Shown piece by piece: positions 1 to 64,000 of a stretch of 64,000 bases of DNA. The notes beneath the pieces are model-generated. The model was not told the origin of the DNA and ran no database searches. It saw nothing but the letters and a program-made list of their open reading frames with translations. A program made the position numbers and the translations under genes. The stretch covers positions 59,915-123,914 of the forward strand of contig CAVTBV010000012.1 in NCBI GenBank assembly GCA_963733095.1, written 5' to 3'. Source of the stretch: Candidatus Bathyarchaeota archaeon (GTDB taxonomy: Archaea; Thermoproteota; Bathyarchaeia; Bathyarchaeales; Bathycorpusculaceae). Every line of letters begins with the position of its first letter. Position 1 is the first letter of the stretch.

Positions 1-36
1 TTATGCTAGAAATCGTGCTGTACGGACCGCAGACTA

Positions 37-6761: not shown

Positions 6762-6778
6762 AAATTTTTTGTTAAATT

Positions 6779-13317: not shown

Positions 13318-13564
13318 AATAATAGCCCTATTCACATGCTCAGAGCACAAACGCCATGAACGCTGAATAAAAGCCCTACAGCTTATCGAGAAAAGTAAGA
13401 TCCCAGACGCAAAAAAGTACCTGCTCATGCTCCACGCTTGAGGGATAACCTTTTTTGAGTTTTGCTATCTACAAACAACAAAAATATACGAAGCCGATAA
13501 AATCAACATCAAAAATGCAGTAACAACTAAAAAAAAGAGAAAGAGAATAAACTATAAACCGCAG

Positions 13565-23617: not shown

Positions 23618-25253
23618 TGATTAGTGGATTGTGCTTATTAGATTGCCCGTAGATTCTTGGAAACTTAAATTTCGCTCAGGTTCAAATCCCGCAGCCTATA
23701 CCTCGCCCTTTTCGTTTATGTTAAATTGATAGGTAGAGGGTGAGGGGAGCGGCCAAAACAAGTATTATTATTGTGAGAAGAAATGTGGGGTATTCCGGCA
23801 CAACGTTATCTGGCCGCTGTCGGCTATGTTTGCCATATTAACCGCTATATTGTGGATACTACGGGTGTAAATGAAACTTAAAACCCAAAAGTCATCCACG
23901 ATTATGTAAAATTCATTGGAGCCCCATATAGAAGAAGTTAAGCCTGAAATGTTTGCCAATAGTCCTTTCGAAATGTAAATATCGGCGTATCCAGGGGTGC
24001 CATGTGTTCCGGAGTTTAAGTGGGTTGCAAGAGCTGGACCAGTTTTGGTCTTAAGTCTTGGAAAGCGGAAGCTTGGCTTGACATTTTTCTGTCATCGAAG
24101 ACCCGAAAGATGCTTCACCGTTCTGGATCACATTGCACCCTTATTTTCAAGGTGCATTGGTATGTTGATGGGGTTTTTTGGATTAATCTTTGCTGTTGCC
24201 CTTTCTGGGACATATTCCATTGTTTGCAACTGCATTCAAAGCCATGTAGTGCCCACTATCTTGGTTTTATAACTAGCAAATTTCTAATACGAGCGAAGAC
24301 CAATAAAATTACTAAAGAGGCAAGAACATAAGATGAACCCTGTTGGTTTGTAGACCCTTTCATTTTGATTGGGGACCCAAAGGAAACTACAGTTGGACCC
24401 CATTATACTTCAACTTTGATGGAACCTTCGCCTTCTTAGCAGGCGCAAACGAAGGGACATGGGCTCAGGTTGATGACATAATAATCTGGAGATTCAAACG
24501 GCAACCAGATACCGAAAACAATACAGTCTATTCAGGAAGCTGCACAAGAAATTTTTATGTCTGGACTGATGTTGTCGTTTAACGGAGAAAAAGGACACTG
24601 GCACGCGGTGAAAAAAGGCACTAAATTGTTTACCCTCAAGGAAAAAGAAAAACTACCCTACTTGATTGAAAAAGAAAGTAAACCAACGCTCGACCCGTTA
24701 GGGAAGAGAGAATAGTAGCCAGGTCCTCTACAAATATTTTTATCCCTGCAATCGGCGGAACAAAAAGACTGAACAAATTGAGAAGAACTATAATTTTCCA
24801 GTGATTGCACCAAAAGCTCTCACGAATTGCCAGCCACGGGATTACCAGCTTAGCTTTGGGGAAGGAGAACTCTTTGACATCTCCAAATTGCCCAATAATG
24901 TTAATACTCTCAACAGCGACATAAAGTGAAGAAGTTGCGAAATCCCAAGGAAAAACCTTTGTTGACCAACTACAATCACAAAAGGCAAACGAAAAATTCC
25001 AAATGATTCAGTCGATACACACTGATTCATATGTCGGCGACGTAGAGTTACTTAACGTTCCATGTGGTTCTCCAAATATGACCATAAAGGCAACAAAATT
25101 GTGTTGGTCCTCGATGCTAACTCGGGCAGAGTAATCAACAGCCTCGGCTTATAAGAGATTATAGTTTCGTCGGCACCCTTAGTTTCTACTTTTGTTGTTT
25201 CTAACTAACATAAAAACTTGGGGTAAAAATAAACTATTGTTGATGGAGCTATC

Positions 25254-42300: not shown

Positions 42301-44645
<2,345 letters not shown>

Positions 44646-44659
44646 TCGTAGCAAGAGCT

Positions 44660-44779
44660 AGCGATAACAATACAGCAAAAGTTGCTCACTTGGAACAAGA
44701 AGTCTGCGAGCTAATAGAAGCAGGCTACGAATACGTTTGCGAAATGGGTCATTTCAAGCTTTTCAGAAAACACAAATAA
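44660..44779 (+). pseudogene. C-terminal remnant of a Bathyarchaeia-type tyrosine integrase
   Basis: AKVAHLEQEVCELIEAGYEYVCEMGHFKLFRKHK* resembles the remembered KVA...E...LIE.GFEYV......LFRKRK integrase tail; 275 bp from the tRNA-derived att copy. Confidence 0.65.
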
Positions 44780-45053
44780 CCATCAGTTTCCAAAGACCGG
44801 AGATTCGCCCAAAAGCTGGGATTCATGCTGAAGAGCAGGGAAGGGGCTTTTGATTTGAAGTGCGATTCCCTACGCTGTTTACTGGTAATTGAAGCCGCTT
44901 GCAAGCAAGTAACCGCGGATTCCTAATTATCGATGAACTGATCGTCTTCCTGCTTTTACAACATTTCAAATGAAGCAATTGCTAATTTGAATGAAACTCA
45001 AACTATGTATATTTTAGATAAAATAAGCTCAAAAACAAGCCAAACTGGTAAAT

Positions 45054-45071
45054 TGGCGCCGGGAGGGGGAT
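45054..45071 (-). repeat. 18-bp duplicate of the tRNA-Ser 3' end (att site)
   Basis: TGGCGCCGGGAGGGGGAT is identical at 45054-45071 and 48015-48032. Confidence 0.88.
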
Positions 45072-45116
45072 CCAGCACCTTTTTACCAGTAAAAAACTAA
45101 CGCGCGCTCAGGCATA

Positions 45117-45620
45117 TTAATCTTTGAAAGTGTTGAAGCTAAACAATTCTTCAATTGGTTTCTTCTTTCTTGGTTTCGGCTGCTCAGCAGGATAACCTAG
45201 CGTTAATAGTGCTACGACTTTCCATTTGTCGGGGACTTTTAGGGATTCTTTGACTTTATTCTCGTCGAAGGCGCCTATCCAACAGGAGCCAACTCCGAGT
45301 GCCCAGGCGGCGATGACCATGTTTTGCATTGCGATTGTTGCGTCAACGACAGCCCATTTTCCAGTTAAGAGCGATTTTATGTCAGCGCATCCGACAACGA
45401 CTGCCGGAGCATCTTTGATAAAACCGTTGAAGGGTAAATTGGAGAATTTCTTCGCTAGTTCATGGTCTTTTACGACTATGAAATGAATTGGCTGTTTATT
45501 GACCGCAGAGGGCGCTTGTCTGCCAGCTTAAAGAATTTGTTTCATTACATCTTCGGGTAAATCTTTTGCTTCATAGCGTCTAATGCTTCTGCGGTTGAGA
45601 ATCAAATCAAGAACGGACAT
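45117..45620 (-). pseudogene. Nitroreductase family gene with a single in-frame TAA at codon 31
   Basis: MSVLDLILNRRSIRRY...QIL*AGRQAPSAVNKQP...DATIAMQNMVIAAWALGVGSCWIG. Confidence 0.88.
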
Positions 45621-45886
45621 AAAACCTCACATTTTCCTAAACTTTGCTTTTCCCTTTCAGTACAGCCTCTTAAAAACACTTCTGCGATGTGCTGAGAGTC
45701 TTCATTTACGGGCTTCAGTTGTTGCTGAGTTGCAACTTCATTGACTCACGATTATTGAATGAATTGAGCTAGCTTATGGAAAAAAACTCAGTTAGTACAT
45801 TGAGTTGAAATGCTTAAGAACGCAAAAGTATTTGAGAAACAGTTTTCGACTGTTTGTATTGCGCTTGCATTGGTTAGGCGGGATGT

Positions 45887-46774
45887 TTGTTTATGAGTGA
45901 GATGAAAGGGAAAATCTGTGTTGTAACGGGCAGCAACTCTGGAATTGGGAAAGAAACTGCCTTAAGCTTGGCGAAGATGGGTGCCAACGTTGTTATGGTT
46001 GTTCGCAATCAAGAGCGAGGCGAAAAAGCACGGTTGGAAATAGTAAAGCAAACCGGAAACAACACTATCGATTTAATGATCTGCGACTTGTCTTCTATGG
46101 ATTCAATCAGGCGATTCGCGCAGAAATTTAAGGGGAAATATAACAGACTCGATGTGCTGGTTAATAATGCTGGAGCGATGTTCAATAAACGCGAGGTTAC
46201 ACCAGAAGGCTTTGAACGAACGCTTGCCGTCAATTACTTGGGACCGTTTCTACTCACACATGAGATGCTGGATTTGCTTAAATCGAGCGCTCCTTCCAGA
46301 ATAATCAACGTAAGTTCAGGATTAGCCAAAAACGGCAAGGTAGACCTTGACGATCTCCAAAGCGAAAAGAACTACGCGGGAACAAAAGCTTATGCTCGAG
46401 TTCGGGCAACAGTTTACGCTAACACTAAACTGATGCTAATGATGTTTACGTATGAACTAGCAAGACGACTAAAAGATACCGGAGTCACTACAAATGTGCT
46501 CATGCCTGGTTTTGTCGCGACTAACCTTGGAAAAAACAGCGGCAGCCTAAGTTCGTCCATTATGTTCAAAATGGTTCGTCCAATGCAGGTGAGCGCTAAG
46601 AAAGGGGCAGAAACATCAGTTTACTTGGCTTCATCTGATGAAGTTAAGGATGTTTCTGGAAAATGCTTTGCAAAGAAAAAAGAAGCCACTACATGTCCAG
46701 CGTCTTATGATGAGCCAATCCAGAAGCGATTGTGGAATGAGACGGTTGCCTTGCTTAATTTGCCCCCAACATGA
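45887..46774 (+). CDS. Short-chain dehydrogenase/reductase (retinol-DH-like)
   Basis: TGSNSGIG, LVNNAG, NVSS, YANTK, PGFVATNL. Confidence 0.92.
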   Translation: MFMSEMKGKICVVTGSNSGIGKETALSLAKMGANVVMVVRNQERGEKARLEIVKQTGNNTIDLMICDLSSMDSIRRFAQKFKGKYNRLDVLVNNAGAMFNKREVTPEGFERTLAVNYLGPFLLTHEMLDLLKSSAPSRIINVSSGLAKNGKVDLDDLQSEKNYAGTKAYARVRATVYANTKLMLMMFTYELARRLKDTGVTTNVLMPGFVATNLGKNSGSLSSSIMFKMVRPMQVSAKKGAETSVYLASSDEVKDVSGKCFAKKKEATTCPASYDEPIQKRLWNETVALLNLPPT

Positions 46775-46791
46775 CTTGGAAGTTTTTTATT

Positions 46792-47090
46792 TCAAAGTAA
46801 TGTAAGAGTTTGCCGTGGGCTGTATCCCATTATCTTCAACGATAGGCCCATGTACTCTATTTTTTCGGGATCAACTTCTACCAGCTCTACCGTCTTGGGA
46901 AACTCCTTCATGTCTAACTGCTTTGCAGTTTTTTTCCATTGGTATGATTCTAAGCCTTCTTTCAGGCTATCAGGGTCCTGTCTGGAGATTATTTTCGCTC
47001 TTCCATTTATTTGGGCGCGCGTGCTTCTAGCACCAATTTACTAGTAAAAAGATGTTGATTGTAGGATTTTGGCAAGTACGCTGAGTTGGA
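46792..47090 (-). pseudogene. Pyridoxamine 5'-phosphate oxidase-like (FMN-binding) remnant
   Basis: Manual translation RAQINGRAKI...EGLESYQW...VDPEKIEY...LKIMGY; 5' part disrupted. Confidence 0.45.
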
Positions 47091-47159
47091 GAGCTGAAGG
47101 TTGAAGCACACAATAATGCGGTAAGGCTTAATTAGTGGATAAAAGTGAGACATATTTAT

Positions 47160-47179
47160 ATGTAATAATTATATTACAT
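47160..47179. promoter_or_regulatory. 8-4-8 palindromic operator directly downstream of TATA
   Basis: ATGTAATA-ATTA-TATTACAT abutting TTTATA (47155-47160), 20 bp before the ArsR start. Confidence 0.65.
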
Positions 47180-47198
47180 GTAATCGTGGAAAATATGC

Positions 47199-47507
47199 AT
47201 GTCAAAAATGGAACAACTATCAACGAAGCTAAAGGCATTATCTCATCCAATGGCATTGAAGATAGCAACCCTGCTAGCTAAGGAAGACGAAGATATGTAT
47301 CTAAATCAAATTGCAAAAAGGTTAGGAATCAACAGAGCGCTAGCAAAAATACACCTAAAAAAACTAGAACGAGGCGGAATCGTCAAAAGCAGAGTAGTTC
47401 TGGTTGAAGGCGAAGCACTAGCCCTCAGATACTACAAACTTCAAGACTTTGACGTTCATGTCTCTCCTGAAGTACTAAAGAAGGAGGGGGAAACATATGA
47501 AAAGTAA
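47199..47507 (+). CDS. ArsR/SmtB-like HTH regulator
   Basis: LKALSHP..LKI..LL, YLNQIA..LGI.RALAKIHLKKLE..GIV.S. Confidence 0.85.
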   Translation: MSKMEQLSTKLKALSHPMALKIATLLAKEDEDMYLNQIAKRLGINRALAKIHLKKLERGGIVKSRVVLVEGEALALRYYKLQDFDVHVSPEVLKKEGETYEK

Positions 47508-47787
47508 AAACCTTATAATTCTAAGTGTCTGGTCAGCGGTAACAATAATTTTTGCCTTACTTATAACTCTTGGAGCAGGCTACAGTGATAACCCTACACA
47601 ATGGCTAATATGGATGTTTGATGATTGGTGGATTGTATTTCTGGTGACATTGATTTTTACCGGTATCGTCAGTTACTTCGTCAAGGAACCAGAAGTTAAC
47701 ATGCAAAGCAATCTACAAAATATAGGAGCAAAATTGGATTCACTCTCCAAAGAAGCAGCAGAAATAAAGAAAGCAATTGAAGATTAG
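47497..47787 (+). CDS. Small membrane protein with C-terminal coiled coil
   Basis: 2 TM helices and an I.AKLDSLSKE..EIKKAIED heptad; overlaps the ArsR stop. Confidence 0.65.
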   Translation: MKSKNLIILSVWSAVTIIFALLITLGAGYSDNPTQWLIWMFDDWWIVFLVTLIFTGIVSYFVKEPEVNMQSNLQNIGAKLDSLSKEAAEIKKAIED

Positions 47788-48014
47788 GCAATAAATGTGT
47801 CCCAACCCCCTTTTTTCATTTTTGACTCATTAACTCGCATATAACCAATGCAGGTGCGATACAATGTGGGTTCAAAACGTGGGTTTTATCCTAAGAAGGT
47901 TCACTTTCGCCTATTTTTACCAGTAAAAATCTTTTGCATAATTTTAGAAAAATCGACAAGTAACCCATAATTACGCCTATTTAGGCAAAATAACCTCAAC
48001 TGCAGCCTTAAAAA

Positions 48015-48126
48015 TGGCGCCGGGAGGGGGATTTGAACCCCCGTGGCCCCGAGAGGCCACAAGCTAATTGGTACCCTTATAGAGGTATCTCCAGGCTTGC
48101 TCCCTGCCTGGCTAGGAGACCCCGGC
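48015..48126 (-). tRNA. tRNA-Ser(GGA) with a 23-nt intron at 37/38 (48066-48088), CCA encoded
   Basis: GCCGGGG/TCCCGGC acceptor stem, long variable arm, GGGGG-TTCAAAT-CCCCC T arm, BHB-like intron. Confidence 0.93.
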
Positions 48127-50276: not shown

Positions 50277-52061
50277 TTAGACTCCCGCCCAGAACAGTGT
50301 TTTCTTTCGCATAAAGGAAATGAATTCTTTGAGGAGTTCTTGCTCTTCGCTATTGAGGTCATCCATGTGGGCTGTCAACAGTTTTTTCGCGTCTGCTTCA
50401 GGAACCTTCACGTACAAAACGTCACGTTCAAACACGTGCCGTCCCGCTGTGGGTTTATCCATAGAAATCGCCACCTGCATGCCTGCTTTAGCTTCGCCGA
50501 TTGCTTTGCCCTTATCCTGAATCTGGTCCACTTCACCCAAATCTGAACTGTCTTCTACCCGCATAAGCGAAACTTTGGGTTTTATTCTGCCACTCAAGAT
50601 TTCAACGCCGAGCACCACTGGTTTGGCACGTCGGAAAATGCAGTTGGGCAACACCGTAAGCTTTCCGGGTTTAACTAGCGCCTCAAACTCTTCTTCGCTC
50701 TTGGCTTCGCGTTTGTTCTTTGCCCATTCCAGGTAGTTGTCTATTAGGTTGTAGATGATTGGGTCTTTGAAGATTTTAACGCCGTTTGCTTCCGCTTCGA
50801 TTTCAGCATCGGGCAATACTTTAACGCCGAAGGCGAGGATTGCGCCAACTAAAGGCTGGTGAGCCTTCACCACGGAAGCCTCAATCACGTCGCGTTTGCT
50901 GATGTCGCCGATGTCAGCGATTCGAACTTGGATGTTGTTGGCTTTTAAAATCTCAGCCATGGCTTCAAGGGAGCCTAAAGTGTCAGCTTTTACTATGACG
51001 CCGTCGATTTCCTTGGTAATTCTAATTCTGCCGATTTCTTCCGTGATGAGCTTACAGTACTTGGCAACGTCTTCGCCCTCAGGCACAGCAAACAACGGTG
51101 CACCCGCCAACGCACCCTCCAAATCTGGCGCAACAATCTTTACACCTGCACTAGCATAAACACACTCAACGCTTGTGAATTTGTCGCGTGGGTCACGCAT
51201 CTCATCGAGCGGTTTAGGAACCAGAATCGTTCGTACACGCGCCGAGATGGGTCCGTTCTTGCCGCCGACAACTATCAAGTCGTCCTTGTGCAGGGTTCCA
51301 TCGTAAACAATAGCGTTGAGCGTTAACCCTAAACCCGGTTCCTCTTTAACTTCTAAGATGGAGCCTTTTGCGGCGCCGTCCGTTGTTTGCAATCGTTTTT
51401 TGAGGAACTGCTGAGTTAACCCCACTAGAACCATAACTAATTCGGATAAGCCTTCGCCTGTTTTGGCGCTGGTCGGCACCAAAGCAATGTTGATGGTGAA
51501 GTCGCGAATATGGTCGAATCTGTCAGTTTTGAATCCTAAACGACTAAAATCCCCCATGACCGCGTATAAGCGGTTGTCTAGCTCTTCGCGAACAAAGCTC
51601 GATTGTTCAGCATACGATTTTAGGAAGGGCGCACCTTGCTGTGCTTTCCAGCCAGGAAGGCGATCAATCTTGTTAACTGCAACGATGAAAGGGGTTTTGC
51701 GTGCCTTAAGAATCTCGATACACTCGAAGGTTTGGGCTTCAAAACCACGCAATGCATCAACCACCAGAATAGCAATGTCTGCAACGCTGCCGCCCCGGCG
51801 CCGAAGGTTCGTAAACGCTTCATGCCCAGGCGTATCCACGATTAGTAAACCAGGAATTTCGATGCCTGTTTTAAAGTTGCCCATGTAGGGGCCGATGAGT
51901 TGTTTTAGGGTTTCCACAGGGAAAAAGCTCGCGCCGATGTGCTGAGTCATTCCACCCGCTTCGCGAACTTGCACGTTAGTTTTGCGTAATTCGTCAAGTA
52001 CCGAGGTTTTGCCTGAATCTACGTGTCCAAGAACACAGACTATTGGTTGGCGCGTGGGCAT
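50277..52061 (-). CDS. infB: Translation initiation factor aIF5B (IF2)
   Basis: LGHVDSGKT, REAGGMTQHIGA, DTPGHEAF, NKID, KADTLGSLEA. Confidence 0.97.
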   Translation of the reverse strand: MPTRQPIVCVLGHVDSGKTSVLDELRKTNVQVREAGGMTQHIGASFFPVETLKQLIGPYMGNFKTGIEIPGLLIVDTPGHEAFTNLRRRGGSVADIAILVVDALRGFEAQTFECIEILKARKTPFIVAVNKIDRLPGWKAQQGAPFLKSYAEQSSFVREELDNRLYAVMGDFSRLGFKTDRFDHIRDFTINIALVPTSAKTGEGLSELVMVLVGLTQQFLKKRLQTTDGAAKGSILEVKEEPGLGLTLNAIVYDGTLHKDDLIVVGGKNGPISARVRTILVPKPLDEMRDPRDKFTSVECVYASAGVKIVAPDLEGALAGAPLFAVPEGEDVAKYCKLITEEIGRIRITKEIDGVIVKADTLGSLEAMAEILKANNIQVRIADIGDISKRDVIEASVVKAHQPLVGAILAFGVKVLPDAEIEAEANGVKIFKDPIIYNLIDNYLEWAKNKREAKSEEEFEALVKPGKLTVLPNCIFRRAKPVVLGVEILSGRIKPKVSLMRVEDSSDLGEVDQIQDKGKAIGEAKAGMQVAISMDKPTAGRHVFERDVLYVKVPEADAKKLLTAHMDDLNSEEQELLKEFISFMRKKTLFWAGV

Positions 52062-52541
52062 CTGTTTTTTTCTCCTTAAATAATTTTGATGATTGGATGA
52101 TTGTTATGGCTGTTGATTAATGAATACTCATTTATCAAGGTGTTCGTTTAAGTTTTGGTTTAATTAAAGCCAAAAAAGCGACTTAATTCGAGCACAATAT
52201 CTTAAATGCGAATGGGACTAAAAAAGTTTGCAAGTGCCAAACCAATACCTTTGATTACTATTTTTAGGGTGGGATTGAACCTTACACTGAGTGAACATAT
52301 CACCCGCATTCCTCTTGCGACTCCGTAGAACTATATAGATACTTGATCGATAGCTTTACAATAAATACAACTTGCATTGGAGTTTAGTTTTGGAGATATA
52401 AAGTGTTAGGAAGGTTACTGATTTCCGCATGATGGCTTGGTTCTGATTCGAGCTAGTAAACAGAAGAGAAATTGAAAAAATATGATATGAAAGATTTTAT
52501 ATATCGAAGACCAGGTTCTATTCAACCGGAGTTTTAGCTGT

Positions 52542-53615
52542 TTGCAGAAAAAGAAACGTGATACAAGAGCTTTTATCGTAGAGAAATATTTGGTTTGGTT
52601 GGTACTAAGAATCTGCATTCTTGTTTTTCTCTTCGTGCTGCTGGAGAGCAGTTATAGAGAAGGGGCATTCTACATCTTCGGAACGGCAGAAATTCAAACA
52701 ACAATCTACATGGTTCTGCAAAAGATTTTATTCTCCGGGTTAGTGTGGTTTTTCTTAGCAGTTTCCAAAAAAATTATTGTTCCAGCAGTAATACTCTCTA
52801 TTTCTCCTGTAGTTGGAAAAGTAGTAAGAGACCCTCGCTCCAGAAGTAGAACTGTCAAATCAACAAATCGATATCTAACCTACATAGTCTACTTCACTGC
52901 AATAGCGGCTCTTGTCTTAATTTGGGCTTACTCATTTATAGGCGCATGGATCGCCGGGTTTCTTGGAACTGGGATGATTGTTACATTAACCTTCATTCTT
53001 GGCTTGTTCACATCTAGCGTTCTTGGCAACGTCTTAGCATACAGTGTTCTTGAGGGGACAAGCGAATTCAAGACCGGCGACAGAGTGCAGATTGGCGAAA
53101 GCTACGGGGACATAGTTGAGGTAGGTGTGTTTTACACAAGAATCAAAACGATAAAAGATGAAGTAATCAGCATTCCAAACTTGATTGTGATGAACAAAGA
53201 GATGAAAAATTTTAGTGCCTTAAAAGAAGTCTTGATTTATGTATCAGTCTCCTTAGGTTATGACGTTGATAAGGATCAGGCTAAAAGAATCTTAATCGAA
53301 AGTGCCGAAAAAACCAGAGGAATCTTAACAACAAACCAAAAACCAACTGATGCTCTAGGAGACATTGAAAGTGAGGAAAAAACGGAAGGACTCTTGAAAG
53401 ATAGAAAACCATTCGTTTTGCTAAAAGATCTTGGAAACTATTCAGTAACTTATGAAATTAATGCCTACACTGACCAGCCTAATTCACTTATCAACATAAA
53501 AAGCGAACTTATTGACAATATTCTGAATGAATTTAAAAAAGCAGACATAGAGATATTATCACCATTTCATGTTGCTCAACGACAATATCCCAAAGTTGCT
53601 GCTGTGGAAACCTAA
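52542..53615 (+). CDS. MscS-family mechanosensitive channel
   Basis: FKTGDRVQIG...GDIVE....YTRIKT...E.ISIPN, NFS, VSLGYDV, V.YEINAYT. Confidence 0.88.
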   Translation: MQKKKRDTRAFIVEKYLVWLVLRICILVFLFVLLESSYREGAFYIFGTAEIQTTIYMVLQKILFSGLVWFFLAVSKKIIVPAVILSISPVVGKVVRDPRSRSRTVKSTNRYLTYIVYFTAIAALVLIWAYSFIGAWIAGFLGTGMIVTLTFILGLFTSSVLGNVLAYSVLEGTSEFKTGDRVQIGESYGDIVEVGVFYTRIKTIKDEVISIPNLIVMNKEMKNFSALKEVLIYVSVSLGYDVDKDQAKRILIESAEKTRGILTTNQKPTDALGDIESEEKTEGLLKDRKPFVLLKDLGNYSVTYEINAYTDQPNSLINIKSELIDNILNEFKKADIEILSPFHVAQRQYPKVAAVET

Positions 53616-53869
53616 TAATATATGCGTGGGACCCTAAAGGTGAGAGATAATTAGTCATTAAGTGTACAAAGCAAGGAAAAGCAGTAGCTATTTTTCATCT
53701 AACAATTAACAATAGAACGTTTTGACTACCAACGCACATCTTCTCTCACACTACCTAACAAATCTCTTATTACGCTGCCCAATTCACGACTACCCAAAAC
53801 AATTAAATTAAAATTTTCTTGCCTTGCCAACTTAATTATAACCCATCCGGTTTACCATATTCAAGACTC

Positions 53870-54162
53870 TTGTCAATATCAACACCTCCATTTCAGCTGC
53901 CGAATCCAAGAGCGCGCTCTTCTAAGTTTACACGTGAAGAATACACGGTTTCTGGAAAAAACTTGGTTGACCGGGTTGGGGAACTTTTGCGTAAGGGAAA
54001 TGTGACGCGGGTAATCGTTAAGGATGAAGCAGGTAAAACTTTGCTAGAGATTCCAGCGACGGTGAGTGTGGTTGGAGTTGTTGTGGCTTCTTGCCTGGCA
54101 GCGTTAGGTGTGTTGCTGCTTTGGTTACAAACTGCAAAATTGGGGTTGAAATAAGAGAATAA
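53870..54162 (+). pseudogene. DUF4342 family gene, frameshifted and degenerate
   Basis: EEYTVSG.NLVDRV.ELL..GNVTRVIVK....TLLEIPAT; ALVTNCKI.VE in a shifted frame. Confidence 0.7.
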
Positions 54163-54169
54163 GATTTGT

Positions 54170-54370
54170 TTATTCTGGCGGTTTAACCAGAAGCAGAAAA
54201 ACGCCCAATAGCAAAAGAATAGCGCTCAGGGCCCCGAAGAGCACGTTAAATGGCCCTAAATCGGCGGTTGTAGCTGTAAAATAGAGCATAACTGCACCGA
54301 TAACTATCAAGAGTAATCCGAAGAGTCTTTCAGCTAAAGATACCCAGAATGTATCGCCTTCTTCACTCAT
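54170..54370 (-). CDS. Small 2-TM membrane protein
   Basis: Two hydrophobic helices; SD-like AGGAAG upstream. Confidence 0.6.
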   Translation of the reverse strand: MSEEGDTFWVSLAERLFGLLLIVIGAVMLYFTATTADLGPFNVLFGALSAILLLLGVFLLLVKPPE

Positions 54371-54536
54371 GTCTTGTTTTCTTCCTTGCGTCTTTTCTTA
54401 TGCGTTTCTTTCATATAAACAAGAGGAGTTATTTTAAATTTTGGTGTGAAAATAAGGGATAATTAAAAAGTACATCTATGAGCATAAATACATTACATTT
54501 ATAAAAAATAAGAGCAATTAGAGGGTGTTTTTGGTA

Positions 54537-54930
54537 ATGGTAATTGAAAACAGCGTATCCATTAAATCTATACCAAATAATCAGGTAAAAGACTATTTTA
54601 TGTCATTGCACAACAATAAATCGGACACAAAGTAGAATTATGGCGCCATGATTGGGTCTTTCGTCGACTTTTTGGAAAACAAGGGCATAGAACGCTTTGA
54701 AGATGGAACAAAACTGATGTTTGTCAGTTTCTCTCAACTAAACGATCACAAAAAACAAGAAACCTGTACATTTTCATAATTAAGATCTTCTAAGATTATC
54801 TGGGGAAAAAGGAATTAGTCGAATATCTTTACCAAAAACCAGTGAAAGGGGCGATTACTCATCAGAATTGCTAACACCTGAAGAAGTCATGAAATTAGCG
54901 ACGGAAGAGGGCAGAAGGCGAAAGATGAAC
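54537..54930 (+). pseudogene. Degraded N-terminal part of a tyrosine recombinase
   Basis: Fragments T..NY...I..F..FL, KTDV.QFL, T.NLY...IK.F..YLG and ELLTPEEVMKL across stops and frameshifts. Confidence 0.5.
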
Positions 54931-54982
54931 AAGAGCAAATGCATTAGGCGTGAGCTGGTTATTCTCTGCAGATCAAGCCGAC

Positions 54983-56137
54983 TTATAATTCTGTCCCGTT
55001 CCAAAATATCACTTTGTTGTAATGAACCGTGCTGGATTGCAAACTGTCTTCGTAGACTACGTCAAGATTTGGTCCATACTGCTTTAGCAAAATCGTCACG
55101 TTGCCCCATACGCTAGCTGAAAGGTTGTCTGCGGGCCACAGACCCCAAATTGTGTCGTTTGGCCCTCTAAAACCAAACCCGTAACCTGCTGGGAGCACAT
55201 ACGCTATTCGGTTTTGAACAAGGTTTTGTGGTTGTGGATTTGTATTTATGTAATTCCAGAATTGCTTCATCGCGTTAAGCTGGTCGGGTTGCAGAATGTT
55301 TTCAGTATAGTTCAGGTTGCTGTCAAAGACCAAGATGAATTTGGCTCCATTTTGGTAAGCATACACCATGTCGTCGTATAGTTGAGTTGCATTTTCTAAG
55401 TAGGGCGCCTGGGTATATGTATCTGTTATCATTACACCCCAGTCCTCATTGCTCATTGTGGCTGCTCCGCGGCACAGCGCAAGCTGAAGGGGCGTACTCA
55501 AGTTATAAGCGAATTCTGCTAAGACCACATCGTAGCCTCCTTGGTAGTCAAATTCATAAAGGGCGTAATCAGATGTCATCAGAGGAATAGCATCAAATTT
55601 GAAAACTGCCAAGTCCTGGTTAAGGGCAATGACAAACTTGTTAGCGGCGTCGGTGTAGTTGTCTGCTTGCTGCACAAGCATCAAAGATATGTTACCATTT
55701 TCAACTGAAGATCTGGCGCGGTCTATCTGTGCGCCTCCAGCTTCATCATAGGGAAACAACCCCCAGAAACGGTTTCCCCAAGTTTGCTTAGCCTGAATTA
55801 CCCATTGAGTCTGGTTGAAGGCTTCGGGGTTTATATGCCAGAAGGGTGCAAAGGTCAGTCCGCTATTATTGATGTACTGACAAACTCCGTTAAGCTCAGA
55901 CATGTTGTAGGTTATTACTGTACTGCCAACAACGATAAAATTAGTGTAGCTGCTAACTTGGTTTACAAGTTCTTCAAAGCTTCGCACGTCTGAGAATGCT
56001 ATGTCAAGTCCGAAATAAACATCTGGAGTGTATTTCGTTGGTTGACTTGCAATGTGGATGCCCGCCACTACCCCAATCAGCAATATGACAAGCAAAATTA
56101 TTAGAAGATATATGTGTAATCTTTTCATCCACATCAC
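54983..56137 (-). CDS. Membrane-anchored extracellular hypothetical protein (possible glycoside-hydrolase-like barrel)
   Basis: N-terminal TM helix; aromatic-rich; YDEAGG, TSDYALY.FDY..GYDVVLAEF, ALCRGAA...WGVMIT. Confidence 0.65.
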   Translation of the reverse strand: MMWMKRLHIYLLIILLVILLIGVVAGIHIASQPTKYTPDVYFGLDIAFSDVRSFEELVNQVSSYTNFIVVGSTVITYNMSELNGVCQYINNSGLTFAPFWHINPEAFNQTQWVIQAKQTWGNRFWGLFPYDEAGGAQIDRARSSVENGNISLMLVQQADNYTDAANKFVIALNQDLAVFKFDAIPLMTSDYALYEFDYQGGYDVVLAEFAYNLSTPLQLALCRGAATMSNEDWGVMITDTYTQAPYLENATQLYDDMVYAYQNGAKFILVFDSNLNYTENILQPDQLNAMKQFWNYINTNPQPQNLVQNRIAYVLPAGYGFGFRGPNDTIWGLWPADNLSASVWGNVTILLKQYGPNLDVVYEDSLQSSTVHYNKVIFWNGTEL

Positions 56138-56673
56138 AATTTATGAAGAAAATAATCTTTGACTTCTTTACGCTCACTACCTTTAGAGCACTCATTTATC
56201 CTTAAAATATTTTGTTTTTGAGCACACACTTAAAAAACCAGAAATAGTTCCGTTTGAAGGCTTCAACGAACTTTAGTCCAGAGTCCAAATTTTTTAGGCT
56301 TAAAAAACTGCAAATACCATATGCACTATGTTTATCCAGATATAATTATCCTGACAATTATTAACATAATTCTTAATTATCTTGGAAGTAAGAAAACAAA
56401 AACCCAACAATTATCCACCATTTTGTCACCATAATTTTAAATTATTCCATAATTTTTGTGGTTGTACGTTTGCGCGTGGATTTGAAAGTGGATAAACCCA
56501 AGGTTGATTTGCCAGCCTAAGCATTTTCGATAGTTTGGATGGCTGAAAAAACTCTAATGCCGCTTCCATACTGGTTTGTGCAATGAACCATTATTAGGAT
56601 CCAAATATGAGTGTAGCAAAACTACACATGTCCCAAAAGTTATTATCCTATACCAAACTTTTAGGCTGGTGCC

Positions 56674-57952
56674 ATGATGAGAGAAAAAGCTAAAGAATGG
56701 CTAAAAATTGGCACCTTAACAGACGAATGGATTAAAGCATCCTATGACAGTTCAGACGCTCAAAGTGTTTGGAAATATCATGATCGAATGAACACTTTTT
56801 TGGAATTTGTGGGCTTAACGGATGTAGAGTTTATTGAGGGTTTCAAGCGGTCAAAGGATCGTTTAGAGTGGGCTAAACAGACAGGTGCCAAAGTCATAGC
56901 GTTCTACAATGATCGGGTGCAAAGGGGTTATGCAACCAACACAGTTAGAGCAGAAGTTTCCACGGTTAGAGCCTTCTGCCGAGACAATGCCACCACACTG
57001 ATCATTCAGCGTCGGAAAATAGCTAAAGCCAAAAGCGCAAAGGGAGAACATGAGTTCACACGCGAAGAATTAGCCAAGATGTTCTACGTTGGCGATGTCA
57101 GAGGCAAAGCAGTCTTAAGCACTGCAGTAAGTTTAGGTTTCAGCGTGGAAGATTTCTCTGAGCTAAAAAGAGAATACATTGAGGGGTTAGTGAACAAGGC
57201 TTTAACGGAAAAGATTGACTTTATCGGGTTCGACTATGAACGGGGAAAAACAGGGGTTGAATCAAGAAGCCACTTGACACCTGAAGCAGTTAACAGCCTC
57301 AAAGCATGGTTTGAATACATTGACACAAAGAGAGCCGAAAAAGGTCTACCTAAAAGTGAGTGGGTTTGGTGCAATGGTAACGGTGGGCACCTAAACGAGC
57401 AGACACTAAACGACATTGTAAAAGACTTGGTGAAGAAAGCCAATATTTCAGTCACAGGAAAGCTAAGGTTTCACTTATTGCGCAAGTTCTTAATGAGTAG
57501 CCTTCATGATGCTGGGTTTGACAGTTGGGAAACGAAAAGAGCGTTAGGCAAAGAAATTCCCACAAGCGATTCTACTTATCTTAGAGGGTTAAGCCGAAAA
57601 GTAACTGAAAAATTCCCTCAAGCTTACTCGTACATTCGGTTAAGTGGGTTCGCTAACCACAATGGAACAAAACTTGAGGAAATGCAGGCTAAAATCCAAC
57701 AGTTAGAGATCGCTCAGGAACAGTTGACGCTTCAGAATCAAGCACTTCTCAGGAATGATCGAGTTTGCTATTCCTAAAGAAACCATGAAAAAAGCAATCT
57801 ATGAAGCAGCCAAAACACTACCCGATATGAACGAAAACAAACTTGAGCAAATACGAGTTAACTTACAATCTACTCAGAATCCATCAGAAATGCTGAACAC
57901 CTTGAGAAACATACAAACAATTGGGCAAGTCAGAATAAACGTGCGATCTTAA
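56674..57952 (+). CDS. Tyrosine recombinase/integrase-like protein with atypical active site; probable +1 frameshift near 57754 separating a C-terminal tail (57755-57952)
   Basis: SAM-like N-domain (TVRAEVSTVRAF), FTREEL.KM, RGKTG, RFHLLRKF (HxxR), LGK, STY. Confidence 0.8.
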
Positions 57953-58052
57953 GTTTTATTAGTTCTTATAATTGTATTTTTTATTAGAAATTCAATTCTT
58001 ATTAAAAACTTAAAAGGTCAACTCTGGATAAAGGATATGGGAAGGAAAACTT

Positions 58053-58604
58053 ATGGTTGACCTCTTAAACGTATCATTAGCAGTAATAGCTATTTTTTCA
58101 GCTTTATTTGTAGCATTATCCGAAGGCTTTAAAATTACACTCGGCTTTCGAGGTTCTGAAGAAACTCGACAAAGGAAAGAGCGGATTGATATCAAACTGC
58201 ACCGCGAGCTTAATGATGAAATTGAAGATTTCTTGTCAAGTGATGCATGTCGAGGTGGAAGTCCAGATCGCATTATAGGAATTCAAGATTTAGGTTTCAA
58301 GGCAATGCTCGCTGAGGATGCAGCTAATGACTTAATAACTCGCTCAGACAAAAGCATGAAGAATGCAATCAAGAACTTGTTAGCTGGAACTTTGATATTG
58401 TTTGTCACAGTGGCGGTTCTTATTAGTGTGGATTTTACACAACTTGATAATTTAATATTTGCTGGAGTTTATGTTGGCATTACCGCTTTTCTTTTTTGGA
58501 GATTTGCTTCAAGCACAATGAAATCACTTCATTATAGAGAGCAGCTTATCACACTTGACGATGAGCCGACACTACAAAAAGCTGAAGAAGTTGACCTTGA
58601 ATAA
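58053..58604 (+). CDS. Hypothetical membrane protein (3 TM)
   Basis: Hydrophobic N-terminus and two C-terminal TM helices. Confidence 0.7.
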   Translation: MVDLLNVSLAVIAIFSALFVALSEGFKITLGFRGSEETRQRKERIDIKLHRELNDEIEDFLSSDACRGGSPDRIIGIQDLGFKAMLAEDAANDLITRSDKSMKNAIKNLLAGTLILFVTVAVLISVDFTQLDNLIFAGVYVGITAFLFWRFASSTMKSLHYREQLITLDDEPTLQKAEEVDLE

Positions 58605-58859
58605 AGCCGTATATTAGCCCTTCACCCTCTTATCTAAGTTGAGCTTCGAGCTTTTTCGACAAAATTTTGTGGGTTTGAACCCTTGAGGGTTCATGATAAG
58701 CCCATGGTGAAAAGTTAGGATAGTACAACTGAAACTGTATTTTTTCTATTGACATCTTAGTATGTTATCGCGCACAAACAACCCTTTGCAAGCACGGAAA
58801 AGAAAACCAACGAACAAGCCTCAACACCCAAACAAAACCCAAAACAAACCTCTTCGCCC

Positions 58860-58918
58860 CCGATGGGTCAAAATCTGCGCTCAGGGAGTCGAAATGGGTA
58901 CCCATTTTATGTAGTGTC
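58860..58918 (+). repeat. ~60-bp repeat copy R1 with 16-bp palindrome AAATGGGTACCCATTT (58892-58907)
   Basis: About three quarters identical by manual alignment to R2 (59276-59334). Confidence 0.75.
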
Positions 58919-58963
58919 CAATGAACGTTCAGTTTTTTAAAACGGTGCTTTAGTTTAATGTGC

Positions 58964-59107
58964 CTAACTTGTTACATGAAAATGACGTTTACATTCGGGA
59001 CATTGGTAGGATTTAATGTGAAACACACAGTTTTCGATTTCCTTTTCATGGTTTGTGACTTCACTTCCGCAGCTTGGGCATTTAACAATCAAAAAATATT
59101 CAGTCAT
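58964..59107 (-). CDS. 47-aa zinc-ribbon microprotein
   Basis: MTEYFLIVKCPSCG...EIENCVF..KSYQCPECKRHFHVTS. Confidence 0.7.
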   Translation of the reverse strand: MTEYFLIVKCPSCGSEVTNHEKEIENCVFHIKSYQCPECKRHFHVTS

Positions 59108-59275
59108 TACGGTTCATCTATGGTAGAATGCAGTTTTGTAATTTGAAGTCTTGTGAGAACATTATGATACAACAACTCCATACAATCGAAAAACAAGTGC
59201 ATCCAATGGAAAAGCGTTCACATGGAATAGCGGAAAAGATCGCACCACATCCAAACAACAAAACTCTACTCCCCT

Positions 59276-59334
59276 CCGATGGGTTCAAATACGCGTAAGC
59301 AACGTCGAATGGGGTACCCATTTTTCGTGGTGTC
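59276..59334 (+). repeat. ~60-bp repeat copy R2
   Basis: CCGATGGGT...GTCGAA..GGGTACCCATTTT..GT.GTGTC, 416 bp after R1. Confidence 0.75.
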
Positions 59335-59764
59335 GCTATCAGAATTAGGTTTTCTAATTGACAAGATAAATATTGAAAATCCTAATGCCCGCGATATTTT
59401 CTAAGTGCGAGAGTTGCTGCTCTATCAGGGGGATGATGTCGCCGTCCCAACCTTAGGGCAAAGTAGTTCTTCCGAGGGAAGTTATCCCTATATTCTTATT
59501 GTTGGCGTCTAGATAAAAGCTTTCATATCTTAGCATTCGTGGGCACAACGCATGTACAACTAAATTTTACAAACTGTTCTAGTTTACATATACCCAACTT
59601 ATAGAGGCAGGAAAAATTCGCGAATAATCCATTTAAGTGCAGCAAATCAAGCATTAGAAATTTTGTGAATAAAATGTTTCAATTGTTACGTCTCATGCTA
59701 CAAAAATTATAATAATATAATTCATAGTAATATTATGAGCATATAATGTGCTTGAAGGAATAGG

Positions 59765-60856
59765 ATGATTGTAAAACGTAATCTTTTAAGAATTACGATT
59801 GCTATTCTTATTCTCACCAGCTTGTTTTTATCACTTAATATTGACTCGGTTTTAGCTCAAAAAGACAGCAATAATGGTATAACAGTGACAATTAATACAT
59901 CAAATGGCGAAATCAAATATGATAAGCCGCTCATAATCCAAGGAGTTGTTTATAATACAACGACATATGAACCAACTAGGGCAACGATTGTAATACAAAT
60001 TTTAAAGGATAATACGGTTTTATACACAGCAACAACCGTTTCCTCATTACCAGACGGCAAGTATCAAGATCAGGGATATTGTGTTTGTCAAACAGGTACT
60101 CTCCAAATTACAGTATTAGCAACTTCACAAGGATATAATGCAAGCGCATCAACAACTGTTGTTTCAGAATATTATAAAACGATTTTTGACTTATTGATTG
60201 TCTATTTGATTCCATTTATACTATTGTCTGCTTCAGTAATCGTCTTCGTAATTGCGATTGTGAGTCAGACGGCTGCTAAAAAGAATAAACACGTGAAACA
60301 ATTGGGGCTTGATTCTGGCAAAGTATTTGTCGCTATTATGTTTGTACTTCTTTCTCTCCTCACAGCTAGCATTGTCGCTTTCTTTCTTTTTGTTCCTAGT
60401 CAAATCGGAGCAAGTAGTCCAATCGGGCTAGTTGTAAACTCTAATGGAAATGAAACTCAATGGGTGGTAAACCTTGGGGGACAGAGAACTATAGAATCCT
60501 CGCAATACCTTGGAGGAATTCAAATCCCAGTATATGTTTTAGTTATGAGTTTTCTCGGCGCTTATGTATTTTTCCTAACAAAAATCCGAACTCTTTTAGA
60601 AATACCCAACGGAAATGACTTGACTAAGCAATCATTGGAGTACTTAGCGCGTTTCTTCATTGCTCCTCTATTAGCAATTGCATTGTTTCTAGTTCTTTGG
60701 CAATTGGAAGTTAGGGGTACTTTCATTTTGGGTGCGGTGAGTTTTGCTACTGGCTTAATAATCGAGCTTGTAACCGACAAAATATTAGAATTCGCTAAAA
60801 ACGTAATTGGTGTCAAAGAAACTCCTAAAACTAACATTATTACAAAAAAGCCTTAG
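59765..60856 (+). CDS. Signal peptide + Ig-like domain + multi-TM membrane protein
   Basis: Beta-rich ectodomain; TM region with SFLGAY, RFFIAPLLA and AVSFATGL. Confidence 0.7.
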   Translation: MIVKRNLLRITIAILILTSLFLSLNIDSVLAQKDSNNGITVTINTSNGEIKYDKPLIIQGVVYNTTTYEPTRATIVIQILKDNTVLYTATTVSSLPDGKYQDQGYCVCQTGTLQITVLATSQGYNASASTTVVSEYYKTIFDLLIVYLIPFILLSASVIVFVIAIVSQTAAKKNKHVKQLGLDSGKVFVAIMFVLLSLLTASIVAFFLFVPSQIGASSPIGLVVNSNGNETQWVVNLGGQRTIESSQYLGGIQIPVYVLVMSFLGAYVFFLTKIRTLLEIPNGNDLTKQSLEYLARFFIAPLLAIALFLVLWQLEVRGTFILGAVSFATGLIIELVTDKILEFAKNVIGVKETPKTNIITKKP

Positions 60857-61060
60857 GATCCACTTATCTTTCCTAAAGAACAAATAAAACAAATTTTTGT
60901 GCAAAAACAGAGCCCTTGGGTGCGAGGAGGGTGCCCTTTGGGGCGGTATGGTCGACTTTTTATGTTTTCTTTCCTAAGTCTTTTTTTTCTATGACGGCGG
61001 AAAAGGAGATTTAGGGGGTCAAAGGAAGAGTGTATTGTCATTTCATTTATTCCTAAGAGA

Positions 61061-61120
61061 CGGTGGGTGAATTCTACGCTACGGGCATAGAAGAGGGCGT
61101 CGGGGTCGAGGTTACTCCCT
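61061..61120 (+). repeat. Degenerate third copy R3 of the island repeat
   Basis: CGGTGGGTGAATTCTACGCT versus R1 CGATGGGTCAAAATCTGCGCT, followed by GGGGTCGAGGTTACTCCC. Confidence 0.4.
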
Positions 61121-61298
61121 CAGGTCAGCTGAGAGCGTTATTTGGCAAGTGAAACTTTGCTAGTTAAAACTCATTGAAATATTAAATAATTAAAATTAGC
61201 ATATATTATATTTACATAAAAAATTAGAAAAAGTTTTAAATTGAAAGGCTCTGTTAACCATACTTAGATTTCTAATCAATTTTATAGGAGGTGAAAAA

Positions 61299-61784
61299 TT
61301 GACTAAAACTTTTATTCTATGGGTTCATGGAGCATCAGTTATACCCGAATATACAAAGGCATTTACGGGACATGACTACGGATTGTACTTGCGCCCAACT
61401 GGTTACGGCTCAATAGTAAAACAGAAGGTAGGTACAGACAACTGGTTTCATTTCGCGATTCCTTCTGGAAGTAAACTCTGTGGTATTCCTGGTGATGCTC
61501 GGGTATCGCTTCAAGAAGCGTTTGTACGATTCAAAATTAACACTGGGGCTGTCATAAAACAAATTACAGTTCACGAAAATGATCATCCAAACAGCAGTAG
61601 CCCAAGAATTTTTGACTCTGGTTCAATCTCAATTACGGGACAAGATACTGAATATGCCATCCCGATTGTTCCTTATAAAATATGCACAGGTCCTATTGTG
61701 ATATGTGTATATGTCCATTGGGAAGCTGATAACGGCGAAGTTTTGTTCACTGGTGCAGGTGCACGCTTTGAAGCCACCGAATAA
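61299..61784 (+). CDS. DUF6623-like beta-sandwich protein
   Basis: WVHG.SV..E...G......NWFHFAIP pattern; SD GGAGGTG and TTG start. Confidence 0.6.
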   Translation: MTKTFILWVHGASVIPEYTKAFTGHDYGLYLRPTGYGSIVKQKVGTDNWFHFAIPSGSKLCGIPGDARVSLQEAFVRFKINTGAVIKQITVHENDHPNSSSPRIFDSGSISITGQDTEYAIPIVPYKICTGPIVICVYVHWEADNGEVLFTGAGARFEATE

Positions 61785-61794
61785 AGCAAATCAA

Positions 61795-61847
61795 TGGTGG
61801 CGGAGTAAAATGGTTAAGGCTTAACGAGATGATTACTCCGTTCACCA
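61795..61847. other. Bulged hairpin immediately after the DUF6623-like gene (terminator or recombination site)
   Basis: TGGTG/CACCA, CGGAGTAA/TTACTCCG and GTTAA/TTAAC. Confidence 0.55.
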
Positions 61848-62226
61848 CCTCATTCTTTTGGTAAGTTAGTGCGCGATTCGGTTATTTGTATGATAGAAAG
61901 GCAAAATAGGCTCAAATTAGCCCTAAAATAGCGATATCGTTGGATGTTAGCTCATGTTTTTGAGTTTAACTTATGGATTCTGGAAATATTTTTTTGAGCT
62001 AATCTAACCAGTTTTTAGATTCTCCTTGTGTCGATTTATGCAGGAAACTCACTGTTAGCTATTGTAATTCTTAAAATCTCTTCGCTCAACATTTTTCTTG
62101 CTTGACATTTTATTCCATCGCTTGGTATTATCGGTGGGTGATCGTATTCAGTCCAAAAGACTATTTTTAACAGTGTTAGATTTGGGGCATCCATTATTTT
62201 TTCGCATAAACAGCTTTCTGGAAGAT

Positions 62227-62560
62227 TTAGGCGCAGTTTGAGCAGAAATAATGTTTGGATATTAGACCTTTTGAGATTGCACAATCCTTGCAAAGTGGTT
62301 TTAAGCATTTTTCACAGACTTTTGCATGTTCATCACATACTAATTTTTCGCATTCGACTCATACATTAGTTGGAAAATCTTCGCATGGTCTATCTAAGAA
62401 CTTTGTTTTTGAGCATTTCAGTTCATCGAGCACTAATTCTCCTGAATATCCCAAATAATCTCTTTTGAATTGTTTTGGAGAGTTTGGAAGCTTGTAACTT
62501 AAATGGAAAATTGGAACTGCAAAAACACCCAAGGAACCCAGTTCTAAAATATCTTTTTTC
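62227..62560 (-). pseudogene. Remnant with a Cys-rich multi-zinc-finger C-terminus and in-frame TGA at 62359-62361
   Basis: ...PC.DF.TNV*VECEKLVCDEHAKVCEKC.KPLCKDC.....HYFCSNCA*; no start codon found. Confidence 0.55.
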
Positions 62561-62671
62561 TTAAGTGAGAGGTGGTTTGAACGATTTGAATGAACTGTGG
62601 CAAATCTTAAGTGGACTCGTCTCTTATTGCATATATCAAATTGGATTAAACACCGAATAAAGTGATGTTAC

Positions 62672-63710
62672 TTGACTAATTGGTTCGTAATTTATGACCT
62701 TCTAACTTACAATCAATATCGCATTTATGAGGATATGATTCTATGTGAAGCAAAATATTCTCGACGCAATAGTAGTCTTAGAACAAAACTTGTTGTCCCA
62801 TGTGAGAAGAAATTTTTTGACATAAAGGAAAATGATAGAGTGGTTTATTATGCTAGAGGCGCTGGAGTGATTGTGGGTATATTTAAGATTCTTTCAAGCA
62901 AAACATTTTTTATAAAAAGCCCAGATGTAGAAAGGTATCTTTTTGCAAAAAAAAATTAGAAAAATCAGAGGTTTAAAAGATGAATACTTGAATTTCAAAA
63001 AATTAATTTATAATTCAAATTTTAATGGAATAGATGTAAATGAAATGCTTGAAAAGAAAATGTCGTGGAGTATTCTAGATGATAATGATTACAGCAAAAT
63101 AGAACAGGCATATAATAACCGTTCTTACCAAATAAAAATCAAGAATAAGCCAAATGAATTTGGATCTCATGGTTGGATAATTGATCCAGAGGTTAGCAAT
63201 GGTATTCTTAGTTACTATAATGGACGAGCCACATCTTTCTCAAGTCTCTTTCTAGCTTCAATCTTTGGATTGCTAACTTTAGCAGCGATACTGCAATCAG
63301 TGTTTAGTCAACCAAATTTTACTCTAATGAATAATTGGGTTGTTTTACTGCTCTCATCATTCCTTTATTTTTTCTTCATCATAGTGGGTTATTACACCCT
63401 AAATACATACTTTCATTATACGGGCATAGCTGATAGAATAAAGAATTTCGCATTAGACATTCCTTATCTAAAGGAACTGGAGAAAGTGTGGGCTGTTGGT
63501 GAAAAAGACAATCGCTACTATGAAACTAATCTTTCACAAGTTATAATGGACAAGGAAAGACATTATAGTAATTCGTTATTGAAAAAATATATTCTTAGAC
63601 ATGCTGCATTATTCATTGGAGGATACATAATAGCACTCTTAGCGTTAAGTTTACTAATATATTGGAATCTACTATTACAATTTTGGAGCATTATTAGTAA
63701 ATTCATGTGA
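62672..63710 (+). CDS. EVE/PUA-like domain fused to a 3-TM membrane domain, split at an A9 run (62947-62955)
   Basis: IKENDRVVYYA....IVGIFKI.S is EVE-like; deleting one A joins it to IRKIRG...YLNFKKL...W.IL...DY..I and the TM helices. Confidence 0.6.
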
Positions 63711-64000
63711 AAATCAATAATGCTCAATATCTACCTACTTGGTTTTGTTAGGGTCTAATCTTGCAAGGAAACGCTTAATATTGAAAATGCTTTACTGAGA
63801 GTTGGATTAAAAATTTTTTATGTGGCAATCTTAAGAACAAAGCCAGCATTTAATTATAACCCGTGCTAATAGTTGATGGCGTCAAGTACAAGCCTTGGAC
63901 TCATAAAGATGAAGAGAAAGAATTCCATCCATTAGTAAAAGCACACAATCATATGGGCTAACAAAGAGGAATAGAGAATGGTTAAAGTTTCAAAGGATGG

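Follow-up and report, generated by a model that had tools for sequence, protein, structure and literature searches.

A gene joining an EVE-like domain to a three-helix membrane module, interrupted at an adenine tract in a Bathyarchaeota contig

Two reading frames and an adenine tract

The window analyzed here is a 64,000-nt stretch of a Candidatus Bathyarchaeota contig (GenBank CAVTBV010000012.1) and belongs to an archaeal chromosome, with genes for Topo VI A and B, RLI, aIF5B, KatG, and FeoB. Near its end, two overlapping ORFs meet at a run of nine adenines (Table 1), the second being read in the +1 frame relative to the first. A sequence-only reading of this DNA had proposed that the two ORFs are joined if the tract loses one A and that the break falls inside a predicted EVE domain. 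Both points are true. Deleting one A leaves a 1,038-nt open frame of 345 codons, reading ...ERYLFAKKIRKIRGLKDEYLNF..., and a 345-aa protein results. The extra A sits in a Lys-Lys-Ile stretch (GCA AAA AAA ATT), and the frameshift corresponds to residue 94, within β strand 89-99 of an N-terminal domain that ends at about residue 150. The ORF1 product covers residues 1-94 of the EVE-like domain, followed by an Asn and a stop that are made by the extra A; with the frameshift lying inside that strand, it would be a truncated barrel. In the whole 64-kb window, runs of nine A or T occur only twice and runs of eight only three times. In the family alignment, the N-terminus MTNWFVIYDL of the window protein corresponds to the family N-terminus MTKWFV.HDL, which fixes the start at the TTG codon. 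Two elements read by eye upstream, one TATA-like and one Shine-Dalgarno-like, are possible expression signals of the gene, and the block AAGTGAT.TTACTTGACTAATTGG upstream of the gene is conserved in L001, the contig that encodes the closest homolog.

Table 1. Coordinates, in the window, of the interrupted gene, its domains, nearby signals and the upstream integrase.
Feature	Position	Strand	Remarks
Tyrosine integrase	56674-57777	+	Pfam Phage_integrase 1.5e-11, phrog_1 7.8e-14
TATA-like CATATATC	62630-62637	+	Possible expression signal, read by eye from the sequence
GTGAT, Shine-Dalgarno-like	62662-62666	+	Possible signal, 5 nt upstream of the TTG start
ORF1	62672-62959	+	TTG start at 62672, 95 aa, TAG stop 62957-62959
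EVE-like (PUA superfamily) domain	62672-63122	+	Residues 1-150 of the restored protein; family profile and AF2 fold
ORF2	62943-63710	+	Stop 63708-63710; rest of the EVE domain, linker and 3-TM module
A9 tract	62947-62955	+	Nine A, CAAAAAAAAAT; A8 gives the in-frame 345-aa gene, A9 and A7 both break the frame
Conserved membrane module	63186-63707	+	Residues 172-345; hydropathy, charge counts, AF2
TM1	63228-63308	+	Residues 186-212, hydrophobic
TM2	63324-63401	+	Residues 218-243, hydrophobic
TM3	63588-63686	+	Residues 306-338, hydrophobic

Homologs of the restored protein were sought exhaustively and without profiles among 1.8 billion cluster representatives, and 122 matches were obtained. A word-indexed search recovered the window's own pieces and one close relative, to which a profile added P0041. 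The closest homolog, P0002 (76% identity), is the sole close relative in an index of 5.8 billion proteins, and its protein runs uninterrupted across the junction (...EKYVFAKKIRKIRGSKDEYLNFKK..., YVFAKKIRKIRGSKDEYLNFKK, FAKKIRKIRG). At the site of the window's A9, the DNA of P0002 (L001) has AAAAAAGA, 8 nt in length (A6GA). About 26 of the 122 matches, 312-387 aa long, align over both halves. Using domain profiles built from the family alignment, we found both the N-domain and the membrane module in 42 representatives, the membrane module alone (approximately 170-250 aa) in 70 and the N-domain alone in 10. The genes of this family have a GC content of 0.30-0.39 and are Lys-rich. When the restored frame of the window gene was compared with that of L001, dN/dS was 0.24 overall, 0.31 upstream of the tract and 0.22 downstream, indicating that both parts were under purifying selection as one reading frame. 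The restored gene carries no lesion besides the tract. Hence, ORF1 and ORF2 are almost certainly one gene encoding an EVE domain plus three transmembrane helices, as the sequence-only reading had supposed from the position of the break: intact single-protein homologs were found, and the read-through in P0002, the approximately 26 full-length homologs and the dN/dS values all bear the proposal out. Two separate genes were ruled out by the read-through homologs together with the position of the break inside a β strand of the domain.

An EVE-like domain and a membrane module

EVE domains are specificity modules of modification-dependent nucleases and toxin systems. Searched alone, the window protein (ORF1 fragment or restored protein) matched the Pfam EVE family PF01878 with an E value of 0.037 and 14.5 bits, below the cut-off of 23 bits. 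Among family members, PF01878 matched 11 of 32 in one set and 7 of 68 in another (best E 1.1e-6), and those above the cut-off include P0106 (29.1 bits) and P0099 (24 bits). The profile of the family alignment A1, compared with the PDB, matched PH1033 (1wmm) with an E value of 1.3e-5, profile positions 25-144 aligning with residues 16-144 of the 145-residue chain; it also matched MJECL36 (2p5d). An AF2 model computed from a 32-sequence alignment (pLDDT 90.7, pTM 0.78) begins with a strand at residues 3-8 and a helix at 10-17, followed by strands, that is, a PUA-like barrel with a helix after strand 1. A model from the single sequence, with a pLDDT of about 30 in the N-terminal half, was replaced by this alignment-based model. 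The best PDB matches of the model in Foldseek were 2gbs (Rpa0253, an EVE protein), 6yex (VcaM4I) and many YTH domains, with probabilities of 0.9-1.0. Judged by the family profile and the predicted fold, residues 1-150 form an EVE domain of divergent sequence, and the PH1033 match and the AF2 barrel agree with the EVE/PUA-like N-terminus read earlier from the sequence. In the window's sub-branch, the Trp of the family's conserved D..W motif is absent, and the binding pocket may therefore differ.

The stand-alone archaeal EVE proteins PH1033 (UPF0310, PDB 1wmm/2hd9) and MJECL36, and also Rpa0253, resemble the N-terminal half in that the whole PH1033 chain aligns with it and the best structural match is an EVE protein. 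They differ in being soluble, single-domain proteins, whereas here a domain of low identity to them is fused to a 3-TM module. A parallel in organization is found in VcaM4I (EVE-HNH, 6yex), the second-best fold match, and in EVE-McrB, where an EVE reader and an effector also share one polypeptide; in these Type IV restriction enzymes the effector is a nuclease or a GTPase, in contrast to the membrane module of the present family. EVE-fused modification-dependent enzymes have been catalogued as defence proteins (PMC7641849). In two other proteins, P0060 and P0099, the same EVE subtype is joined not to the membrane module but to a C-terminal domain of approximately 130 aa with a D...EVQV motif. 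This domain resembles PD-(D/E)xK nucleases by eye and had no match in the PDB, Pfam or NCBIfam.

The three transmembrane helices anticipated in the C-terminal half were recovered both by hydropathy and in the AF2 model, where helices span residues 172-211, 222-262 and 311-344. The loop between TM1 and TM2 is uncharged, and 11 Lys and Arg residues follow TM2 in the segment between TM2 and TM3. By the positive-inside rule, this charge pattern would place the EVE domain and segment 250-310 in the cytoplasm. The best-conserved part of the protein is the pre-TM1/TM1 segment, LLDYYNSRATSFASLFVASIFGLVTLSAIIQ, in which the share of sequences with the commonest residue is 0.73 vs. 0.39 in the EVE domain. 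Its invariant polar residues are N183, R185, S188, S196, T202, and Q208. A polar first helix conserved to this degree points to more than a simple anchor: the module may itself be active, for example as a channel or an oligomeric pore.

The membrane module had no match in Pfam, the PDB or BFVD. For SLATT domains specifically, no Pfam match was obtained among approximately 100 members, and the sole SLATT-like match in BFVD had an E value of 1.6. Matches to holin families were isolated, weak and below threshold, and came from a few single members. The SLATT and 2TM effectors of CBASS-type systems and the RexB-type channels would be comparable in principle, a cytoplasmic sensor on mobile elements being paired with a small helical membrane effector, but they share no sequence similarity and no significant structural similarity with the module. 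Phage holins are likewise small, have two to four TM helices and are encoded in viral genomes near tail or packaging genes. The EVE-membrane protein differs from them by its large conserved cytoplasmic reader, its position on the opposite strand in one provirus and the lack of a significant holin-family match. Taken by itself, the membrane module, whose polar first helix is nearly invariant, is a family of considerable size that lacks annotation.

Length of the adenine tract

We compared the tract with other contigs covering this locus. The Logan contig L002 spans 62145-64000 and 1.7 kb beyond; it carries A7, which breaks the frame, and is otherwise identical to the window over 1854 nt. Contigs from a freshwater sediment (X2, 2024) and a wetland (X3, 2019) have one A fewer than the window at 62947, that is, A8, and their frame is intact. 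X2 contains Nextera adapter remnants and 151-nt contigs, indicating short-read data. Over the approximately 35 kb of the window compared with X2 and X3 contigs, the A tract is the sole indel in the gene region. Two other indel sites were present in these 35 kb: T5/T6 at 25787, and one-base gaps at 48080 and 48086 that stem from a single X3 contig only partly aligned there. The indel at 25787 was rejected as a frameshift error of the window as it is intergenic. Two control tracts, A8 at 13529 and A9 at 17767, agree in length with the short-read contigs; this length comparison covers these two, and a T8 at 60981 is a further long run. Ten large housekeeping genes in the window are full length, suggesting that the assembly is generally sound. 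On the contig sequences, the odds are roughly even, and we lean at most slightly toward A9 being a real allele and not a consensus error. Three lengths (A7, A8, and A9), all from contigs alone, are on record for this probable slippage hotspot. In our reading, the gene was functional until recently, and A9 in the window is its OFF allele or, in the worst case, a miscalled version of it, but not an evolved switch.

A serious alternative, to which we give somewhat less than an even chance, is that the true sequence is A8 with an intact gene, and that A9 and A7 are both miscalls of long-read consensus or k-mer assembly. A8 was indeed present in two independent short-read contigs (X2 and X3), and the A9 and A7 sequences, which flank the in-frame length and match at 100% elsewhere, possibly come from one sample. 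Such miscalls would, however, require two errors in opposite directions at one site, and, save for the single intergenic T5/T6, the window equals its short-read counterparts over the 35 kb and at both control A tracts. The size of the contig to which the window belongs (510 kb) suggests a long-read assembly. Three related loci are on Flye-style contigs (L001, L004, and L012; L004 belongs to a Bathyarchaeota MAG from Microflora Danica, a Nanopore project), and two of their three gene copies are also frameshifted, one of them in a G run; the copy in L001 carries several frameshifts. Counting the window, broken family copies occurred in three of four long-read-style contigs (window, L001, and L004), whereas the short-read copies examined were all intact, a pattern to be expected if homopolymers in AT-rich genes are miscalled. 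The long-read work from which L004 stems associated a reduced coding density of low-GC archaeal MAGs with homopolymers >6 (PMC12313526); on the other hand, R10.4 consensus resolves most homopolymers <11 nt (PMC9262707), and the ten housekeeping genes of the window are intact.

The sequence-only reading had further suggested that the gene is kept off by slippage. The finding of A7, A8, and A9 in near-identical sequences fits slippage at this site as well as homopolymer miscalls, and the tract is not conserved in homologs. At its position L001 has A6GA, and other members have scattered A6-A8 runs elsewhere, as expected for AT-rich, Lys-rich genes. This absence of conservation gives no sign of a selected switch and makes programmed recoding unlikely as well. 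A contingency locus, in which reversible slipped-strand mispairing would alternate between ON (A8) and OFF (A7 and A9) and hedge protection against cost or toxicity, is therefore improbable in our view, even though both OFF lengths are one step from ON, the three lengths occur in near-identical backgrounds, the tract is the sole indel in or near the gene, and the remainder of the gene is under purifying selection with no other lesion. A8 is also short for efficient switching. The bacterial homopolymer contingency loci are similar in that a mononucleotide run within an ORF sets the frame and occurs in several lengths; here, by contrast, the tract is not conserved, is short, is made of A and lies in an archaeal host. 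Phase variation is no more than a possibility, and the frameshift alone is ordinary. Nine-A/T runs suffice for RNA-polymerase slippage in bacteria, and a stop follows the tract immediately, but a regulated minority full-length product made by transcriptional slippage on A9 or by +1 ribosomal frameshifting is very improbable, given that no homolog has the frameshift, that the full-length relatives are all single ORFs and that near-identical sequences have A8 at the DNA level.

Further features of the window and of related loci stood out. Segment 45039-48010 (2,972 nt) is absent from an X2 contig, which joins 45038 to 48011 at a depth of 10. It is flanked by 22-nt direct repeats, AAA(T/A)TGGCGCCGGGAGGGGGAT, at 45050-45071 and 48011-48032, contains ORFs at 45887-46774, 47199-47507, and 47497-47787, and may be a small mobile insertion or the site of a repeat-mediated deletion. 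On the + strand, at 23997-25131, four or five overlapping frames of 75-100 aa follow one another in changing frames, and this chain resembles a single gene that several frameshifts have interrupted; over 24525-25025 the short-read contigs are gapless, so the breaks there seem real. At 44001-44667, the 3' end of katG (42474-44645), contig depth in four metagenomes was 15-78 vs. approximately 2 elsewhere, with many partial matches, and the GC content of 0.52 is above the window mean. The conserved catalase-peroxidase sequence draws contigs of other organisms to this region. As for the L004 copy of the EVE-membrane gene (4255-5245; MAG MFD01872.bin.1.202), a GGGG(G) run within the EVE-coding part has lost one G and splits the gene, and in the C-terminal YW motif the codon of the invariant Trp is TGA. 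The 18.5-kb contig L001 has mostly very short gene calls and looks error-rich or decayed; at 6609-8541, its type IIG restriction-methylase is split into three called genes (292, 74, and 166 aa).

Genomic context and proposed function

From approximately 52 kb to the end of the window, after aIF5B, the GC content falls from about 0.45 to 0.33-0.39. A tyrosine integrase (Table 1) is encoded in this low-GC stretch, 5 kb upstream of the EVE-membrane gene. The stretch (approximately 52000-64000) also carries an MscS-type channel gene and several genes without a family match, and it probably represents an integrated element that continues past the window end. No known defence or phage family was found among the neighbors of the EVE-membrane gene in the window. 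The protein matched no PADLOC family even at E values up to 10 and had no match in PHROGs or NCBIfam, and a search of IMG/VR gave no homolog. When conserved peptides were used to search for loci, the result was one genome locus, seven metagenome loci (all with the membrane module only) and no viral contig.

For the context of the family, simple counts were made over a dozen or so mostly short loci. In four (L003, L013, L016, and L007), a homologous integrase is convergent and directly downstream of the gene, and in L009 a membrane-only copy and an integrase are 2 kb apart. In L012, which encodes P0004, the intact gene is found on the opposite strand between the large terminase gene and the tail collar/fibre genes of a tailed provirus. 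Among the longer homolog loci, no more than two have defence genes close by. In L001 the type IIG restriction-methylase is located 2.5 kb upstream of the gene and a PIN gene on its downstream side, L012 has Mrr_cat and ASCH genes, and L006 has VapBC nearby. In many loci the membrane module stands alone, and in some (L006 and L009) another small membrane protein follows. The integrases adjoining the gene and the provirus copy indicate that the family is accessory cargo of integrating elements and viruses, and we consider such a status, on mobile elements or proviruses, to be highly probable. The L012 region itself (ENA ERZ25039495 contig_6823, region 1-15094) has a 166-aa ORF beside the EVE-membrane gene on the same strand. 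Its provirus also encodes ParB-like, Mrr_cat and ASCH proteins, a PDC-S18 candidate, and a defence-like P-loop ATPase with weak mad3/PtuA/LmuB-like matches.

Our best overall explanation, to which we give about an even chance, is a mobile-element gene of EVE-membrane type whose window copy has one A too many. In the mechanism that we propose, the EVE domain would be cytoplasmic and connected by a short linker to the three-helix membrane module. It would read a modified base in DNA or RNA, most plausibly of a competing virus or element, and this reading would control the module, which could perturb the membrane by ion leak or depolarization. In this way, the element would provide its host with exclusion or abortive infection. 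From the window copy (A9), the full protein would not be made, only a truncated EVE fragment of 95 aa. Modified-base binding and pore formation are both inferred here from the domain family (PMC7641849) and from context, and a sensor-effector function in defence or exclusion stays tentative, at somewhat below an even chance. Still less likely, and in our judgment quite unlikely, is the complete scheme in which an EVE reader directly gates a new membrane effector in archaeal provirus or element immunity or exclusion, with its expression toggled by slippage at the coding A tract.

Defence and exclusion genes are common on mobile elements and proviruses, and the earlier proposal of a defence effector is in line with the family being cargo of such elements; it is not matched by a PADLOC family or by a defence gene beside the window copy. 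That the membrane module also exists as a protein of its own shows that it can function with no EVE sensor attached, which counts against the sensor-effector reading. The main functional rival, possible though doubtful, is a role in the element's own cycle, as a holin-like or egress protein or as a membrane tether of its own (modified) genome in replication, packaging or entry. Lysis or accessory genes often lie between tail-fibre and terminase genes, where the intact L012 copy is also found; morons are usually on the strand opposite the structural operons, and the L012 gene, being on that opposite strand, is moron-like. A role in the cycle would suit the many loci where the membrane module is alone, at times followed by a small membrane protein (L006 and L009), but many copies adjoin integrases at element ends and not in late operons. 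The holin-family matches of a few members, which point the same way, are weak and sub-threshold, and no significant holin or viral structural match was obtained.

The EVE-membrane architecture is real and belongs to an undescribed archaeal family; among its candidate functions, that of a sensor-effector on mobile elements is the best supported and a reasonable inference. Full-text literature searches yielded no description of an EVE-membrane fusion, and the EVE census (PMC7641849) names no transmembrane fusion, with zero occurrences of the word. The frameshift at A9 is also of practical use, as an example on which methods that separate true homopolymer alleles from errors of the consensus in long metagenomic contigs can be tried. 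Sediment and soil archaea are poorly studied and few defence functions have been tested there. If the proposed function is true, the gene would be a small single-gene candidate for virus-virus or element-host conflict, and, with the tract acting as a switch, it would represent the first EVE-controlled membrane effector together with a rare homopolymer phase variation of an archaeal defence gene. Modified-base sensing would then extend to membrane-acting effectors.
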